Below are positions 14,853-58,094 of a DNA stretch of 62,594 nucleotides, piece after piece. Positions within the stretch are counted from its first letter, which is position 1. Every line of letters begins with the position of its first letter. The translations under genes were made by a program, and so were the position numbers. This DNA comes from Promethearchaeota archaeon Loki_b31 (GTDB lineage Archaea > Asgardarchaeota > Lokiarchaeia > Sigyniarchaeales > SOKP01). The stretch is from NCBI GenBank assembly GCA_005222975.1, contig NJBI01000012.1, forward strand, positions 1 to 62,594, written 5' to 3'. A model generated the notes under the pieces. The model was not told the origin of the DNA and made no database searches. It worked only from the letters and a program-made list of their open reading frames with translations.

Positions 14853-16862
14853 ATGCAACAAAAATTTAACCCTAAGGAAATCAAAATTGGTCTTAAACTA
14901 CCGACAATTTTGACCCCACTAAGTGGAGTACTAATTCGAATGGCTTTTTTTGTAGATTACATTTTCCCTCCGCTATTTAAAATATTTAAAATAATTGGGC
15001 GTTTGGGTAAACTTCAAAATATTAGTTTTTTACCTGAAAATGACGTCATTAGATTAAAACAAACTCTTATAACTCTTGAAGACGGAGGAAAGTTAGCAAC
15101 CGACATATATTTACCGAAAGAGATTTACAAAAAGAAAGGCAAGGGCCCTACAATTCTAATAAGACTACCTTATTGGAAAGATCGCCTTAGTATATTAGGA
15201 TATTTCTTAGCGTCTAAAGGTTATGTTTCAGTTCTCCAAGATATACGAGGTTGTGCGCGTTCGAGCGATTATAGCACTAATTCGATATACATGTATGAAC
15301 GACAAGATGGCTTAGAAACTTTACGTTGGATCACCAAACGATTTTGGCACAATGGGAAAATAGGAATGTGGGGATTGTCTTATTTGGGCATAACACAATT
15401 AGCTGTATCCTGGAATAACGAAAATTTACTTACTTGTTTAAGTCCAATTCACAGTTCTTTTTCAAACGTTTTTTGGCATCCTGGAGGTTTATATCCGATT
15501 GGTTTGTCAGGATCTCTTTATTTAATCATGAAGTCTACCTCAAGCATGAAAAAACTAACAACTATGGATTTTGATCAGTGGGATAAAGATGGATATTACA
15601 AGCAATTGTTTTTTAACCCCTCTATTAGCTTTTATAACGAACCTTTAAACTCAAAAATACCAAAATTATCGGATATGGCAAGCATAGAAGGAGCTAAATA
15701 CTTGATGAAGATTATGAATCGAGTCTATAAAACGGATGTAGATGTTTCTAAAAAGGACGACGGTTCGTTCGCTAAGTTGATAAAGGAAGTGTTCTATGAG
15801 AGAAAATTATTTCACAATCACGAATTATCCCCATATGTATTTGGACTTGATTATAAATTTGATACGCCCATACTTTTTATTGGGGGTTGGTACGACATGT
15901 TTATTGAACACATGGTACGAGACGCGAAGTTAATACAAGAAAGGGCTCCAAAATTCTTCAAAGAGAATTTTAAGATGATCATTGGCCCTTGGACACATAT
16001 GAATATGGATAAATTATTTATTAAGCCATTAAAGTACGCCCATTTAAAAGATGACTTCAGGTTTTTTAAAAATATCCTTCCATTTTGGTGGTATGAATCT
16101 TGGTTAAAAGGAGAAGAGGCAGATTTTTCAAAACTACCTCCATTACAAGTATTTGTGTTAAATAAAAATATTTGGAGAGGTTTTAAAAAGTGGCCGCCCT
16201 CTTCCAATGAATTAAAATTATACTTGCATTCTAATGGGGAAAGTAATAGCCTTTACGGAGATGGCGTCCTTTCAAAAAACGAACCGAAAGAAGAACCGCC
16301 CGATAAATATCATTTCGATCCTACTAATCCTGTGATTACAAAAGGGGGAAGAAATCTTTTTCTCTTAAGTGGTCCTCAAGATCAGACTAACATTGAAAAG
16401 CGTGATGATGTGTTAATATATACTTCAAAAACGCTCGAAAAAGGCATAGAAATTATCGGTGAGGTCAAAATGGTCCTTTTTGCTTCTACCACAGTACGGG
16501 ATACAGATTTTATGGTTAAACTAGTTGATGTCTACCCTAATGGAAAAACTTCAATAAATGTTATAGATTCTGGTGTAAGAACTCGCTTTCTTAATGGCGA
16601 TTTGAACGAACCTAAACTCATCAAACCAAATAACATATATAAATACGAATTCACCATTGGTTCAATTGGTATCTATTTTCCAAAAAACCACAAAATACGC
16701 TTAGAAATAACTTCAAGCAATTTCCCTCGATTCGACGTAAATTCCAATCTTGCGGGAGTACAAAATGAGAAGGGGTACAAGGTTGCTACGCAAACCATAT
16801 ATCACGAAAAAGCTAATCAATCACATGTAATCCTTCCCGTTTTTTCTATTGAAAAACAATAA
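14853..16862 (+). CDS. CocE/NonD-family serine hydrolase
   Basis: LATDIY, QDIRG, GLSYLG nucleophile elbow, GGWYD, GPWTH, SSNFPRFD. Confidence 0.92.
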   Translation: MQQKFNPKEIKIGLKLPTILTPLSGVLIRMAFFVDYIFPPLFKIFKIIGRLGKLQNISFLPENDVIRLKQTLITLEDGGKLATDIYLPKEIYKKKGKGPTILIRLPYWKDRLSILGYFLASKGYVSVLQDIRGCARSSDYSTNSIYMYERQDGLETLRWITKRFWHNGKIGMWGLSYLGITQLAVSWNNENLLTCLSPIHSSFSNVFWHPGGLYPIGLSGSLYLIMKSTSSMKKLTTMDFDQWDKDGYYKQLFFNPSISFYNEPLNSKIPKLSDMASIEGAKYLMKIMNRVYKTDVDVSKKDDGSFAKLIKEVFYERKLFHNHELSPYVFGLDYKFDTPILFIGGWYDMFIEHMVRDAKLIQERAPKFFKENFKMIIGPWTHMNMDKLFIKPLKYAHLKDDFRFFKNILPFWWYESWLKGEEADFSKLPPLQVFVLNKNIWRGFKKWPPSSNELKLYLHSNGESNSLYGDGVLSKNEPKEEPPDKYHFDPTNPVITKGGRNLFLLSGPQDQTNIEKRDDVLIYTSKTLEKGIEIIGEVKMVLFASTTVRDTDFMVKLVDVYPNGKTSINVIDSGVRTRFLNGDLNEPKLIKPNNIYKYEFTIGSIGIYFPKNHKIRLEITSSNFPRFDVNSNLAGVQNEKGYKVATQTIYHEKANQSHVILPVFSIEKQ

Positions 16863-17868: not shown

Positions 17869-17930
17869 TTACCCTTGCGGGGTAAGTCGTTTTACGACTA
17901 AAATTTTCTCGTAAAAGTCATTCTTTATCG
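17869..17930 (-). promoter_or_regulatory. Putative eukaryote-like SECIS element of the 17931..18122 ORF
   Basis: Minus strand reads AUGA-C-UUUUACGA-GAAAAUUUUAG-UCGUAAAA-C-GA-C then UUACCC-CGCAA-GGGUAA. It begins right after the TAA and has the same layout as the two selD SECIS elements. Confidence 0.8.
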
Positions 17931-31443: not shown

Positions 31444-32442
31444 TTATTTTGGTTTATTTAATTTTTTTAATTTGATTTTGTTTTCTTTATGTTCTTGTTG
31501 TTCTTGCTTTTTTTTAAATCTTTTAATTTGGTTATTGATTGCGATTTCTTCCTTTTTCCTTAATTCCTCATCGCTCAATACGATAGCTTTAAGTTCATCC
31601 TCGTTCATTGGTTTTAAAATATCTGTAACACTAAAGCCTTTGTTTTTCTCTGTGATTTCTCTGAATTTTGTTTTCATTTCTTTTATCACTAAAAGTTTAG
31701 CTGATGATCCTCGGCTCTGTATCAATGACGGTAATTCAGATCTTTTAATTCTTTCGATACCCGGTCCCAAAACTCTCTGGGGCGTGTGTATTGGCGGTCC
31801 GTAAGATATGGGGTTAACCGACATATTTTGCATGGTTAAGGTGAGATTTTTTAAATATAGCTCTATGTTTTTTAAAGTATCGTTGCTCTCTTTCATCATT
31901 GAAATTACAGATTGATCAGCAGAAATACTCTCAATACTATTTTTTTCGTAAATTATTGTTCTTTCTTCTTTATTTTGGTTGTAATCCGTCTTAATCGATT
32001 GTACTACTCTTTCTTGAGTGACTTTTCTTTTTTGACCTTTACCTAAACTTAGATCTATAAATTGAAAACCATCATAGCAATCGTCGTTAATTCCAATGTC
32101 TAATATGTTAAATTTCTCTGAAAATATATACTCGATTCGGTGCCCAGAATATAGATATATCGTTAGTTTTAAAACTTTAATCTGGATATCTGTATAACCC
32201 TGAATTTCATCTAATTCAATTGTAAAACATAGAAACTCGTTTGAGTGATAAATTTTTTTTATTGAAACCAGCGATGGAGATTGCTTGTAATAAATCTCTT
32301 GTTTAACAATCTTAGATACTTCAAACTGGAAATTCAATCGTTTAATCTTATCTGGAAGAAATTGAACTTGTTCTTCATCGTTTTTTTTAAATTCTAAAAA
32401 CAATTTCCTTTGATCGTCCCAAAAAACTTGGAACAATTCCAT
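31444..32442 (-). CDS. Hypothetical protein
   Basis: 332-aa ORF with a Pro-rich linker and a charged coiled-coil tail. Confidence 0.7.
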   Translation of the reverse strand: MELFQVFWDDQRKLFLEFKKNDEEQVQFLPDKIKRLNFQFEVSKIVKQEIYYKQSPSLVSIKKIYHSNEFLCFTIELDEIQGYTDIQIKVLKLTIYLYSGHRIEYIFSEKFNILDIGINDDCYDGFQFIDLSLGKGQKRKVTQERVVQSIKTDYNQNKEERTIIYEKNSIESISADQSVISMMKESNDTLKNIELYLKNLTLTMQNMSVNPISYGPPIHTPQRVLGPGIERIKRSELPSLIQSRGSSAKLLVIKEMKTKFREITEKNKGFSVTDILKPMNEDELKAIVLSDEELRKKEEIAINNQIKRFKKKQEQQEHKENKIKLKKLNKPK

Positions 32443-47318: not shown

Positions 47319-47422
47319 TGGGAGCGACCGGATTTGAACCGGTGACCAACAAGTCTGGAGCCTGCCGCGTTCAGCACTTTGCTGCGAACGAACAAAGTCA
47401 TACCGAGCTTCGCCACGCCCCC
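47319..47422 (-). tRNA. tRNA-Trp(CCA) with a non-canonical D-arm intron (about 47370-47399)
   Basis: Minus strand: acceptor GGGGGCG/CGCTCCC+A, anticodon arm GCAGG-CT-CCA-GA-CTTGT, T-arm ACCGG-TTCAAAT-CCGGT. A 30-nt insert with an ACTTTG/CAAAGT stem and BHB-like bulges interrupts the D-arm. Confidence 0.9.
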
Positions 47423-54659: not shown

Positions 54660-55448
54660 ATGGAAGTAGAAATTTTAGTAATTGGAAACGAAATCCTTAT
54701 TGGAAAGACCCAAGATACTAATTCAAATTGGATGGCTAAAAGAATAACAAAATACGGGCATAGGTTAAAAAGAATAACTGCTATAGAAGATAGTATTGAG
54801 GTTATTTCAAATACTTTACAAACTATTTTAAAACGCAAACCAGATATGATAATTACCTCGGGAGGGATTGGGCCTACATTTGACGATATGACTTTAGCGG
54901 GGATAGCAATGGGTTTAAATCGAGAATTAGAGCTAAATGAACACGCTTATAATTCTATAAAGAGGGCATATGAACACGCTTACGAAAGAGGAATTTTGAA
55001 ACTTGGAGGCATGACTAAAGAAAGAGAGAAAATGGCACATCTTCCTCAAGGATCGACACCACTACCAAATATAAGAGGGACCGCACCTGGAGTGAAAATT
55101 AAAGAAGGTGAAACGGCAATTTTCGTACTACCTGGTGTTCCCGCTGAAATGAAAGCGATTTTTCTTAACGTTATCAAACCAATATTAAAAGAAAAAAGGG
55201 GAAAATTCGTAGAAAAGGGTTTTATTTTCTCAGGTATCGGAGAAAGTCAGATTGCTCCTTATGTTACCAAAGTTGAAGAGAAGTATCCTCAGTTATGGAT
55301 TAAAACACACCCAAGGATCGGTCTTGCAATTGAAGTCGAGGTATCAATAACCTGTTTTAATGTTGAAAATGGAGAAGAAATGGCTGAAAAAGCTTTGAAA
55401 GAAATACATGAGGTTATAATAAAATTGAATGGTGAAATTAAGGAATAA
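54660..55448 (+). CDS. cinA: CinA-like molybdopterin-binding-domain protein
   Basis: IGNEILIG..QDTN, SGGIGPTFDDMT, LPGVPAEM, GIGES. Confidence 0.88.
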   Translation: MEVEILVIGNEILIGKTQDTNSNWMAKRITKYGHRLKRITAIEDSIEVISNTLQTILKRKPDMIITSGGIGPTFDDMTLAGIAMGLNRELELNEHAYNSIKRAYEHAYERGILKLGGMTKEREKMAHLPQGSTPLPNIRGTAPGVKIKEGETAIFVLPGVPAEMKAIFLNVIKPILKEKRGKFVEKGFIFSGIGESQIAPYVTKVEEKYPQLWIKTHPRIGLAIEVEVSITCFNVENGEEMAEKALKEIHEVIIKLNGEIKE

Positions 55449-55456
55449 ATTATTTT

Positions 55457-55531
55457 AGATGTCACCTTACGGGTGAAAACTCAATAAGCACTTCACAATC
55501 CAAGTGTTTTTTGCTTATATCAAAGACATCT
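55457..55531 (-). promoter_or_regulatory. SECIS element of the selD at 55532..56560
   Basis: Minus strand: AGAUGUC-UUUGA-U-AUAAGCA-AAAAA-CAC..GUG-AAG-UGCUUAU-U-GA-G-UUUU-CACC-CGUAA-GGUG-ACAUCU, starting right after the TAG. Confidence 0.85.
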
Positions 55532-56560
55532 CTAATACTTGATAATCTCAATATTTTCTACATTATCAGCAATTCTAACTAAGCCTGGTTCAATATTATC
55601 AATTGTACCTACAATCCAATTCTCTATACTATTACTAATAAGAGTATTTGAAAATTCTTCAACCTTTTTAGGATCAATAGCAATCAACATCCCTCCAGCA
55701 GTCTCATGACAGCTACAATCATCAAAAGCGTATCCTAATTCTTCTGAAAGTTCCTTTGAAAATCTTATTGATGGAATGGTTTCAATGATTGCAGATAAGG
55801 TAGAATTCTGCAGCGTTTCTTTTATATGACCACTTAGCCCAAAACCCGTCACATCTGTCATTGCATGAATGAATGAAAAATCTTGATAAGAATGAATAGT
55901 TTTTACTACGTTCTGATTTGGTGTTGTCATTAATTCTATAGCAAAATCAATTGATTTTTGTAGTTCACTTTTTGAATATTGTTCTAACATTTCGGGCATA
56001 TCTTTAAGAGACCTATAAGCGGCCATAATCGCTTGTAGGCCAATTGGCTTAGTTAGAATTAACTTGTCTCCTTCTTTGACTCCTTGTTTTAGAATTATTG
56101 CGTCTTTGTGAACAAAACCCGATGCTTCTCCTCCAATCATTGGCCATTCGCTATATATAGTATGCCCTCCTACTACTTGCGAATTAATTTTTTCTTCCAT
56201 GAAATATTTGATTCCTTTTAATATTCCTTCAGCTACTTCCATTGGAGTATTAGTATTAATCCCTAAGAATACTAACATTCCAGAAATGTGTGGAACATTC
56301 ATCGCAAATATGTCACTGGTTACATTAGACGCAGCAATTTGACCCATAACTTCTGGTTCATCGACAATAGGAGTAAAAACATCAATATTTTTGACCATGA
56401 CTAAATCACTATTTGGGATTGGGATGATTGCAGCATCTTCAATATCTCCTTGTAATCCTGCTCTTGCTAGTAAGTTCTCTAGGCTACTTGAACCAAGCTT
56501 GCAACTTCATCCGTGAATCTTAACCTGTGAAGTAAGTCTATATACTTCCTTTTTCTCCAT
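55532..56560 (-). CDS. selD: Selenophosphate synthetase, selenoprotein (Sec18), 342 aa
   Basis: Extending the tracked ORF gives MEKKEVYRLTSQVKIHG-U-SCKL with TGA at 56509-56507; SD GAGGTGA upstream; EDAA, DVFTP, LTKPIG, TDVTGFGL, ETAGG motifs. Confidence 0.95.
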
Positions 56561-56985
56561 TTTTCACCTCAAATCTTATTTTATTTTAAATTACATTGAC
56601 TAAATATTATATAACAAAGGAATCAAGAATTGTTAATTGAAAAAATCATTCTTATTTATTAATATTGTCGATTCTATTTATCTATTTCTTCGATAAGCAT
56701 TTATTATCAATTTTAAAACAAATGTTACACCTATGTTATAACATCTTTAATAAGACAGTTGGTTTTCAAGGTAACTAAAAACTACTTAAGTAATTTTATT
56801 GTATGCTTATTTTCCGGTTAAAACAAAAAAAGATTGAAGAGTTTTTCAATCAAAATGTAAATTCTTTAGGGTTTTCAAAGCGTTTCTTTAGATGGTACTT
56901 AAAAGAATGGAAACGAAAAAATCTGAGTGAAATTTAAGATTTGGGAAATTAATTATAAATTAAAAATAAAAACAGTAAAGCTTTT

Positions 56986-57056
56986 CGATACCGTCTTGCG
57001 ATGGAACTCTCAATAAGCGCTCACATATAGTGTTTTAGCTTATTTCATTGACATCG
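56986..57056 (-). promoter_or_regulatory. SECIS element of the selD at 57057..58094
   Basis: Minus strand: CGAUGUC-A-AUGA-A-AUAAGC-U-AAAA-CAC-UAUAU-GUG-AGC-GCUUAU-U-GA-G-AGUU-CCAUC-GCAA-GACGG-UAUCG, starting right after the TAA. Confidence 0.88.
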
Positions 57057-58094
57057 TTAAATTTTAGTTATTTCAACATGCTCAACATTTTTCGAAATTT
57101 GAACAAGTCGAGGTTTATTAATGTTATCGATTGTTCCTACAATCCAATTAGACACATGAAATTCATTAGCAAGTCTCTTGGAAAATTCTTCAGCATATTC
57201 GTGATCAACAGAAAGGAGCATGCCCCCGGCGGTCTCAGGCATTTCGCATTCATCGAATTTGTATCCAAAATCGTACGATAGTTCTTTTGCTAGTTTAAAT
57301 ATCGGGACCTTCTTAATATTAGCTGAAAGGTTAGAATCTTGGAGCATCTCCTTTAAATGTCCCGAGAGTCCAAAACCGGAAACATCTGTCATTGAATGTA
57401 CGAAAGATACATCTTGATAAGAATGGATAGTCTTTACAACGTTTTTTAGCGGCATAGTCATAAATTCTATGGCCAAATCGATTGATTTGTCAATTTTAGC
57501 TTTGGAATATGTTTCTAAGAGGTCTGGTCTGTTTTTTTGTAAGCGATATGCAGCCATGATTGCTTGGTTTCCCACGGGTTTAGTCAGTATTAATTTGTCG
57601 CCTTCTTCTACGTAGTTCTTTTTAATCAGTTTGTTCTTATTGATGAATCCTGAAGCTTCACCGCCAATTAAAGGCCATTCTGAATAGATTGTATGCCCTC
57701 CAAGTACTTTCGAGTGTATTTTATTTTCCATGAAATTTCTAATACCTTTCAATATTCCTTCTGCGATGTGCATAGGCATATTTTTTTTCAAGCCAAGAAA
57801 TATAAGCATTCCTGAGATATCTAGAACGTTTAGCGCGAAAACATCGTTAGTTACGTTTGCAGCAGCGATTTCACCCATTATATCTGGTTCGTCGATAATC
57901 GGTGTAAAGATGTCAATGTTTTTTACCAGTACTAAATCGGAGTTTGGTACAGGAATTACCGCAGAATCCTCGATATCTCCTTTCAAGCCAGCGCCAGCCA
58001 ACAATTCGTCTAACTTTTTAGAATCAAGTTTACAGTTTCATCCGAATAATTTTGTCTGCAGTGTCAGTCGATAACTCTCTTCCTCTTGTAGCAT
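57057..58094 (-). CDS. selD: Selenophosphate synthetase paralog, selenoprotein (Sec19), 345 aa
   Basis: Extending the tracked ORF gives MLQEEESYRLTLQTKLFG-U-NCKL with TGA at 58040-58038; EDSA, DIFTP, LTKPVG, TDVSGFGL, ETAGG motifs. Confidence 0.95.

Follow-up and report, generated by a model that had tools for sequence, protein, structure and literature searches.

How a selenocysteine insertion sequence (SECIS) in the 3' untranslated region (UTR) of an archaeal mRNA is linked to the ribosome has yet to be explained. Archaea have no known SECIS-binding protein, and the Asgard archaea lack SBP2 (PMC9723677). The SECIS elements of the Asgard archaea are currently shown as shortened versions of the eukaryotic element, and roadmaps of SECIS evolution rest on this two-helix picture. 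Here we describe a contig of 62,594 nucleotides (nt) from Promethearchaeota archaeon Loki_b31 (NJBI01000012.1, contig C34 in our numbering; assembly GCA_005222975.1, 3.5 Mb, 31.5% G+C), the whole of which is referred to below as the window. It carries two tandem copies of selD and an open reading frame (ORF) of 66 amino acids (aa), each with an in-frame UGA codon and each followed by a SECIS-like RNA with a small extra hairpin on its 3' side. The question raised by the locus is what that hairpin, here called P3, is doing there. The three RNAs are genuine selenocysteine (Sec) insertion signals of a Lokiarchaeia-type Asgard archaeon. Sequence comparison indicates that P3 is conserved and covarying in SECIS elements across the Asgard archaea and that the published "eukaryote-like" model, as given in the text of the papers concerned, leaves it out. 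It seems to us very probable that P3 functions as part of the SECIS. We also think it likely that P3 belongs integrally to the Asgard SECIS as a module under selection, with the architecture and mechanism described below; this is the best explanation of the findings as a whole.

Three elements with a hairpin beside the kink-turn

The three elements lie on the minus strand, where the original prediction had placed them (Table 1), and each starts at the first base past the stop codon. Each also has the expected UGA...GA kink-turn core, with a 3-nt bulge ending in U, a helix II of 6-8 base pairs (bp), unpaired A's above it, and a second small hairpin 3' of the GA. We denote the basal helix P1 and this small, G+C-rich hairpin 3' of the kink-turn arm P3. 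P1 encloses both of the selD elements, giving the three-way junction that had been proposed, with one correction: in the two selD copies the kink-turn bulge is separated from the junction by a canonical C-stem of 1-2 bp. In the family of the 66-aa ORF, the AA of the UAA stop codon can belong to the C-stem (AAG:CUU). The UUGA reported for one selD copy, in place of AUGA, belongs to the downstream selD element and is not a fixed feature, the close relative L003 having AAUGA; the bulge UUU is common to L002 and L004, L003 has AAU, and only the U at the third bulge position is fixed.

The general layout from 5' to 3' is P1 (usually at or near the stop codon), a C-stem of 1-3 bp, the kink-turn (a bulge of 3 nt whose last base is U, followed by G.A and A.G), helix II bearing an A-rich apical loop or ministem, GA, the C-stem, a linker of 0-7 nt, P3 and the 3' strand of P1. 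P3 itself is G+C-rich and consists of 3-7 bp and a loop of 4-7 nt containing G-C. From the sequences and their covariation we infer a three-way junction at which P1, the kink-turn arm and P3 come together.

Covariation of P3 in selD orthologs

The selD orthologs in 36 genomes of the genus all contain one TGA. Their 3' UTRs were aligned with MAFFT from the first base past the stop codon, with no fitting to a structure; P1, a 2-bp C-stem, helix II, the ministem and P3 were then assigned by hand on the alignment and the pairs were counted. The covariation expected of the proposed structure was present: standard pairs occupied 95.4% of the cells, against 29-43% when the 3' partners were slid by 1-3 columns, and 12 of the 20 pairs had compensatory changes, that is, changes on both sides. 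P1 pair 6:84 was AU in 13 cases, CG in 12 and UA in eight, and the C-stem pair 12:59, beside the kink-turn bulge, was CG in 32 cases and UA in eight, with none unpaired. Within P3, pair 67:77 appeared as GC (21) or AU (8) and pair 69:76 as UA (24) or CG (12), and the P3 stem of the downstream selD element is represented among its orthologs by CACC:GGUG, CCACC:GGUGG, CCACU:AGUGG and CCGUU:AACGG. A covariance model built from this alignment of a single genus gave full-length matches at distant selD loci of other families. When 75 sequences were aligned by fitting to the model, 19 of the 20 pairs were compensatory and P3 was 93.5% paired; this second alignment is taken only as corroboration of the first because it leans towards the model.

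These changes argue strongly against P3 being inherited baggage, a relic of one duplicated cassette ancestral to all of the elements that has persisted by chance or in the absence of selection. The SECIS of a new selenoprotein gene is believed to come from one already in existence (Huang et al., 2024; PMC11227280), and this would allow such a history. However, the stem sequences are wholly different between elements with the pairing kept, compensatory changes are found within orthologs, and P3 has been kept over family- and class-level divergence in a genome of 31.5% G+C, where G+C-rich hairpins should decay. We regard this explanation as barely credible.

P3 in the genome and in the background

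A strict descriptor of the loki-type element (xUGA, a 9-position stem, an A-rich loop of 10-12 nt ending in G, then GA or AA) had 11 matches in the whole genome, nine of which follow ORFs that need UGA read-through. Three or four MvhD/VhuD-like genes stand ahead of these nine type I elements, as do an ORF for a VhuU-like peptide and small ORFs that contain CUU or Zn-ribbon motifs. A G+C-rich hairpin is found a few bases past the 3' GA in 9/9 of the type I elements and in neither of the two remaining matches (0/2), and the three-way junction forms in the unconstrained minimum-energy fold of 7/9. Together with the two type II elements of selD, this places P3 in 11/11 kink-turn SECIS elements of the genome. 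Hairpins with a stem of 4 bp or more and two or more G:C pairs, sought in 30-nt windows, occurred at 4.3-8.3% of 2164 ORF 3' ends, and the figure for random windows was 11%; at a rate of about 0.08 the chance of 11/11 is roughly 1e-12, the elements being treated as independent. Decoy AUGA-stem-GA cores from looser scans had a P3-like hairpin in about 7-10% of cases, and in one scan none of five decoys had a G-C loop (0/5). Scans of the genome with relaxed descriptors for further kink-turn SECIS elements yielded only decoys beyond the 11. The suggestion that P3 could serve as a search key is therefore supported within this genome, where P3-like hairpins are rare among decoys: a requirement for P3 separates all of the true elements from the decoy matches, and it draws attention as well to small selenoprotein candidates that are unannotated and outside any Pfam family.

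The same frequencies bear on the possibility that P3 serves some end other than Sec decoding, such as termination, 3' processing, mRNA stability or service as a separate regulatory site. P3 does lie in the 3' UTR, and some elements have T-rich tracts after them, such as UUUUUAUUUUU approximately 17 nt past P1 of the upstream selD element. Nevertheless, the hairpin is far from equally frequent after ordinary genes, with 4-8% of other gene ends having one as against 11/11 SECIS elements; since P3 is rare both at ordinary gene ends and at decoy cores, it is not a generic terminator or stability hairpin. Its position is fixed with respect to the kink-turn GA and P1 and not with respect to the T-tracts; P1 pairs across P3 with the 5' side of the element, and this pairing covaries; and P3 occurs in every selenoprotein family and every Asgard family examined. 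Nor does it have the form of an intrinsic terminator: what comes after P3 is the 3' strand of P1 or A-rich sequence, with no U-run, and the U-tracts are at least 17 nt farther on. An unrelated function is thus highly improbable.

Two type I elements of the genome have the following reading frames ahead of them. On contig C46 (positions 31852-32379, plus strand; locus L205) an open frame of 175 aa with no match to a Pfam family ends 8 nt before the SECIS and contains an adjacent pair of UGA codons (DVGC-U-U-EK). On contig C28 (positions 15483-15746, plus strand; locus L206) a putative frame of 87 aa has a zinc-ribbon-like CPFC...CQNC motif and up to five in-frame UGA codons; its Zn-ribbon matches in Pfam are all below threshold.

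Breadth across the Asgard archaea

Inspection of the sequence behind selD revealed P1, the kink-turn arm and P3 in eight families (f2, f4, f6, f12, f13, f18, f21 and f24), and the layout recurs behind mvhD, as type I, in f2, f13, f18, f21 and f24. Wherever the core was located behind selD in other genera, families and classes the parts came in the order P1, AUGA or GUGA, helix II with ministem, GA, linker, P3 and P1, with P3 usually 0-2 nt from the 3' strand of P1. Examples from selD are GGGUU...UCCA-CGCAGAA-UGGA-AACCC, CACGGG...CUGCCG-AGCAA-CGGCAG-CCCGUG, GAGACCG...GCUGC-CGCAA-GCAGC-CGGUCUC and AGCGGCA...CCAUCC-UGCAA-GGGUGG-UGCCGCU, and mvhD provides CUGCUG...CCCC-UGCGA-GGGG...CGGCAG. Eight regions in which the SECIS core was not located (selD L140, L142, L146 and L148; mvhD L160, L172, L173 and L175) are uninformative and are not counter-examples. 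The architecture looks Asgard-wide. The prediction of a lineage-specific architecture, in which a basal helix closes the extra 3' hairpin into a three-way junction, is supported, since the architecture holds for every SECIS of the genome, covaries in the selD orthologs and recurs in these families; it is not confined to one small lineage.

The UGA genes of the window

The 66-aa ORF has no match to a Pfam family. Members of its family were found in 29/41 genomes of the genus with one TGA in nearly all copies, and the SECIS and P3 are kept; the ORF is a candidate for a new family of small selenoproteins. Its UGA lies in a GGG-U-P-C/S motif.

Table 1. Positions in the window of the three UGA genes and of the parts of their SECIS elements
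Feature	Positions	Strand	Remarks
selD, downstream copy	55532-56560	-	selenophosphate synthetase; single in-frame UGA (HGU); stop TAG 55532-55534
Type II SECIS of downstream selD	55457-55531	-	complete three-way junction; full-length match to covariance model, 65.1 bits; orthologs covary
P1 AGAUGU:ACAUCU	55526-55531 with 55457-55462	-	
C-stem	C55525:G55480	-	
Kink-turn bulge UUU	55522-55524	-	
G.A core	GA 55520-55521 and GA 55481-55482	-	
Helix II AUAAGC:GCUUAU, A-rich loop and ministem	55484-55518	-	
P3 CACC-CGUAA-GGUG	55463-55475	-	no spacer before 3' strand of P1; stem covaries in orthologs
selD, upstream tandem copy	57057-58088	-	single in-frame UGA; stop TAA; 64% identical to other copy
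Type II SECIS of upstream selD	56986-57056	-	match to covariance model, 92.2 bits
P1 CGAUG:UAUCG	57052-57056 with 56986-56990	-	
C-stem UC:GA	57050-57051 with 57008-57009	-	
Bulge AAU	57047-57049	-	
G.A pairs	57045-57046 with 57010-57011	-	
Helix II	57038-57043 with 57013-57018	-	
Ministem	57022-57032	-	
P3 CCAUC-GCAA-GACGG	56991-57004	-	central A.C mismatch
Small membrane ORF, 66 aa	17931-18131	-	single in-frame TGA (GGIUPCS); stop TAA
Type I (loki-type) SECIS of 66-aa GGIUPCS selenoprotein candidate	17869-17930	-	orthologs in genus
C-stem AAG:CUU	17923-17925 with 17884-17886	-	
Bulge AAU	17920-17922	-	
Core	AUGA 17918-17921, GA 17887-17888	-	
Helix II, 8 bp plus C.C	17909-17916 with 17890-17897	-	
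Apical loop GAAAAUUUUAG, 11 nt	17898-17908	-	
P3 ACCC-CGCAA-GGGU	17871-17883	-	6 bp if UUACCC:GGGUAA

Among the closest relatives, L002 and L004 included, the upstream selD copy invariably has a mismatch (A.C, C.C or C.A) at the centre of the P3 stem, where more distant selD copies have G:C. The mismatch may be a tolerated or a functional 1x1 internal loop.

Comparison with known systems

The elements are members of the lokiSECIS, or Asgard eSECIS-like, types I and II, as these are described in the text of Mariotti et al. (2016; PMC4989117) and of Huang, Xiao and Zhang (2024; PMC11227280), and all of the defining features that we tested are present. In common with lokiSECIS they are in the 3' UTR straight after the stop codon of a UGA gene and have an AUGA...GA/AA core, with a 9-position stem and an 11-nt loop that opens with A's and closes with AG in type I and a shorter stem with an apical ministem in selD. 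The element of the 66-aa ORF lies one base past the TAA and has AUGA before its stem and GA after it, a pattern seen in 9/9 type I elements of the genome; its stem has nine positions (C.C and 8 bp) and its loop, GAAAAUUUUAG, follows the type I rule of A's first and G, usually AG, last. Both selD elements have the 6-bp helix II, AAAA(AA) and the CAC(UU)...(AA)GUG ministem of type II, and the UUGA in one of them, where AUGA is usual, is allowed by the looser GA_[G/A]A rule of Huang et al. The published models comprise a core, an upper stem, an apical loop or ministem, an internal loop and a lower stem, according to the text of the two papers and of a 2026 review (PMC13188914), and the 'lower stem' GAG_CUC that the text of Huang et al. 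gives for selD corresponds to P1 (GAGACCG:CGGUCUC) in f12 (PMC11227280). In our elements, by contrast, a conserved helix, P3, takes up the 3' half of what those models treat as an 'internal loop'. A conserved third arm with a constrained loop would make the structural model of the Asgard SECIS a three-way junction in which the former internal loop holds a helix.

The resemblance to eukaryotic SECIS elements extends to the kink-turn-type G.A/A.G core after AU, the unpaired apical A's (AAR in the eukaryotic loop), the location in the 3' UTR and the existence of two forms, types I and II. Helix II is approximately 12-14 bp in eukaryotes, in contrast to 6-9 bp here, where there is also a plain 3-nt kink-turn bulge with a C-stem of 1-3 bp. 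The eukaryotic layout of two helices and a simple internal loop separating helix I from the AUGA/GA quartet does not describe the elements, which have a covarying hairpin on the 3' side; we know of no eukaryotic counterpart of P3. The SECIS models of Rfam gave no match at the gathering score in the whole window, and none with an expectation value (E) of 10 or less in positions 55400-57100.

In a k-junction the kink-turn bulge has a third helix immediately across from it, on the non-bulged strand (Wang et al., 2014, PMC4005666; Li et al., 2023, PMC10573300). Known k-junctions are those of the TPP (thiamine pyrophosphate) riboswitches and of DUF-3268 RNA, with none in recoding signals, and L7Ae does not fold them since the third helix blocks its access (PMC10573300). 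Our elements are similar in that an extra helix on the non-bulged strand elaborates the kink-turn to a three-way junction, with P3 continuous with the P1 strand. They are better described as a kink-turn followed by a junction than as a strict k-junction, because a covarying C-stem of 1-3 bp and a linker of 0-7 nt intervene between the GA and P3. A k-junction also keeps its tandem G.A pairs and has the third helix coaxial with the C helix; in our elements the GA/GA sequence and a P3-P1 gap of 0-2 nt are present.

The archaeal box C/D kink-turn, a site for L7Ae, shares with our elements the 3-nt bulge ending in U, the tandem G.A/A.G and a U.U or A.U pair at 3b.3n (UGAU...UGA in the downstream selD element). 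Unlike box C/D RNAs our elements have no guide regions, and their sole similarity in Rfam, to snoR32_R81, is at chance level (E = 4.1). With the euryarchaeal and bacterial SECIS they share the role in UGA recoding, with the euryarchaeal one the 3' UTR location too, and P3 is loosely like the tops of both. The euryarchaeal SECIS has a GAA_A bulge and three G:C pairs; no GAA_A bulge is found here, and P3 is an accessory arm and not the main stem. The idea that P3 is the top of a euryarchaeal-type SECIS was rejected since there is no such bulge in register. The bacterial SECIS is a SelB-binding hairpin inside the ORF, whereas the SelB of this genome is without an evident RNA-binding extension of the bacterial type.

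The P3 loop and the function of P3

The loop of P3 had been predicted to be conserved as GYAA, and this does not hold: within the genus the selD loops are CGUAA, GCAA, UGCGA, UGCAA, GCAC, UGCUCC and CGUAU, with only the G invariant. Its assignment to the GNRA type was right in part. Many loops are indeed a base plus GNRA (CGCAA, UGCGA, AGCAA, CGUAA and GGUAA); in the window the GCAA of the upstream selD element fits a GNRA tetraloop, and GNRA is contained in the pentaloops CGUAA and CGCAA. Among the type I elements of the genome, on the other hand, the loops are NNGCN (CAGCA, UAGCU, GAGCA and AUGCC) and not GNRA. The feature common to the loops is a G-C dinucleotide, in the form of NGCRA, which dominates across the phylum, or NNGCN, the form in the type I elements of the genome. 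G-C is present in about 70-95% of the elements in each family set and in 12.6% of background hairpins, a 6- to 7-fold enrichment. Among the mvhD orthologs, in which helix II covaries freely, the G and the C of the loop are invariant and their neighbours vary (GAGCA, AAGCA, UUGCU, AAGCC and GUGCA). An invariant G-C amid varying neighbours suggests a sequence-specific contact, more than a stable cap, and on balance we lean towards the loop being a specific recognition site.

Two partners for the loop within the RNA were considered and rejected. A GNRA receptor was one: the loops UGCGA and UGCAA occur in the near-identical L007 and L008 with helix II unchanged, and no covariation of loop and receptor was seen. 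Pairing of the loop with the apical AG or the 5' linker was the other: CU or GCU is found in some loops only, and there is no consistent complementarity among type I elements.

P3 accompanies both SECIS elements with a kink-turn and SECIS-like elements without one. On contig C78 (approximately 128922-129560, plus strand; locus L208) there are two UGA micro-ORFs (MSE..., Cys-x4-UGA), namely FCTTSG-UGA and NCYETS-UGA, and behind each is a three-way junction of P1, a 10-bp helix with an 11-12 nt loop ending in AG, and P3 (CGCAA or AUGCC). The AUGA/GA kink-turn and the G.A pairs are missing from both. The locus is kept in 28/41 other genomes of the genus, its helix II covaries and its P3 loops contain G-C.

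These elements help to evaluate the proposal that P3 is a structural brace only, stacking on P1 or on a C-stem of 2-3 bp so that the kink-turn folds, with a loop that caps the stem and makes no contact. The C-stem is very short (1-3 bp), the gap between P3 and P1 is only 0-2 nt, many loops are stable GNRA loops (GCAA, GCGA and GUAA), and both the length of the loop and the position of G-C within it vary, all of which a brace would accommodate. It would not account for the invariance of the loop G and C where the flanking bases vary, or for the 6- to 7-fold enrichment of G-C over background loops; NNGCN pentaloops are not among the loops known to be extra-stable, and the variants that lack a kink-turn, with nothing to brace, still have P3 with G-C loops. 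We consider a purely structural role unlikely. The function that we infer for P3 from the sequence data is that of a scaffold and a second recognition site. P3 would stack on P1 much as the T helix of a k-junction lies coaxial with its C helix (PMC10573300), buttressing the very short C helix and fixing the angle of the SECIS arm, and the G-C loop would offer a second sequence-specific contact to the archaeal reader of the Sec signal, be it a protein, aSelB, the ribosome or another part of the RNA. We speculate that P3 could, in addition, tune which kink-turn protein binds, because the third helix of k-junctions blocks L7Ae.

A bolder and more doubtful proposal is that the G-C loop of P3 and the AG-ending, A-rich apical loop form the true recognition core for the archaeal SECIS-binding factor, the kink-turn being an optional hinge, and that eukaryotic SECIS elements arose by loss of P3 when SBP2 took over recognition of the kink-turn. 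It is suggested by the elements without a kink-turn, in which P1, helix II, the apical loop and P3 are all still present. If it is true, P3 would offer a direct way of isolating the missing archaeal factor.

Several observations weigh against P3 as an integral module of the SECIS. RNAalifold, applied to the MAFFT alignment, called P1 and helix II and did not call P3; in its place it chose a 7-bp P1 that takes the last two G's of P3, so that the register of the junction is ambiguous in selD. We attribute the failure to call P3 to loop indels that misalign it and to competition from the 7-bp P1 for those two G's, and we favour the register with the C-stem because of the C:G to U:A switch at pair 12:59. 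The P3 stem barely varies in the families of the small ORF and mvhD, which consequently add conservation and little covariation, and the related genomes are not independent, so that the counts are inflated. No basal helix encloses the element of the 66-aa ORF, and P1 is never present in its ortholog family, which keeps CCC-NGCRN-GGG; because P3 is kept there without P1, the three-way junction is common but not obligatory and P3 is the constant. The loop motif is loose: GGUGAU in L039, UUAAAAU in L041 and CGUAA in the downstream selD element are without G-C. The sole indication that P3 would lie inside the mRNA is the presence of T-tracts farther downstream. Finally, the text of PMC4989117, PMC11227280 and PMC13188914, to which the comparison was confined, makes no mention of a 3' hairpin or a three-way junction, and a prior depiction may exist elsewhere in them.

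Candidate readers in the genome

P3 is a concrete bait, and a target for mutation, in the search for the reader. An extra L7Ae-domain protein resembling SBP2 was considered and rejected: the L7Ae family (PF01248) has only two genes in the genome, and no SBP2-like candidate is visible there. SelB is encoded by an open frame of approximately 496 aa, an ordinary length; an RNA-binding extension of the bacterial type is not evident since only the N-terminal, EF-Tu-like part matches the bacterial selB model. The L7Ae-family and SelB genes are at positions 85528-85764 of contig C96, 7469-7747 of C33 and 27894-28778 of C59. Elsewhere in the window, positions 47327-47383 on the minus strand match a tRNA model at 30.5 bits (the Rfam gathering score is 29) over model positions 9-63 only, and may represent a partial, split or intron-containing tRNA.

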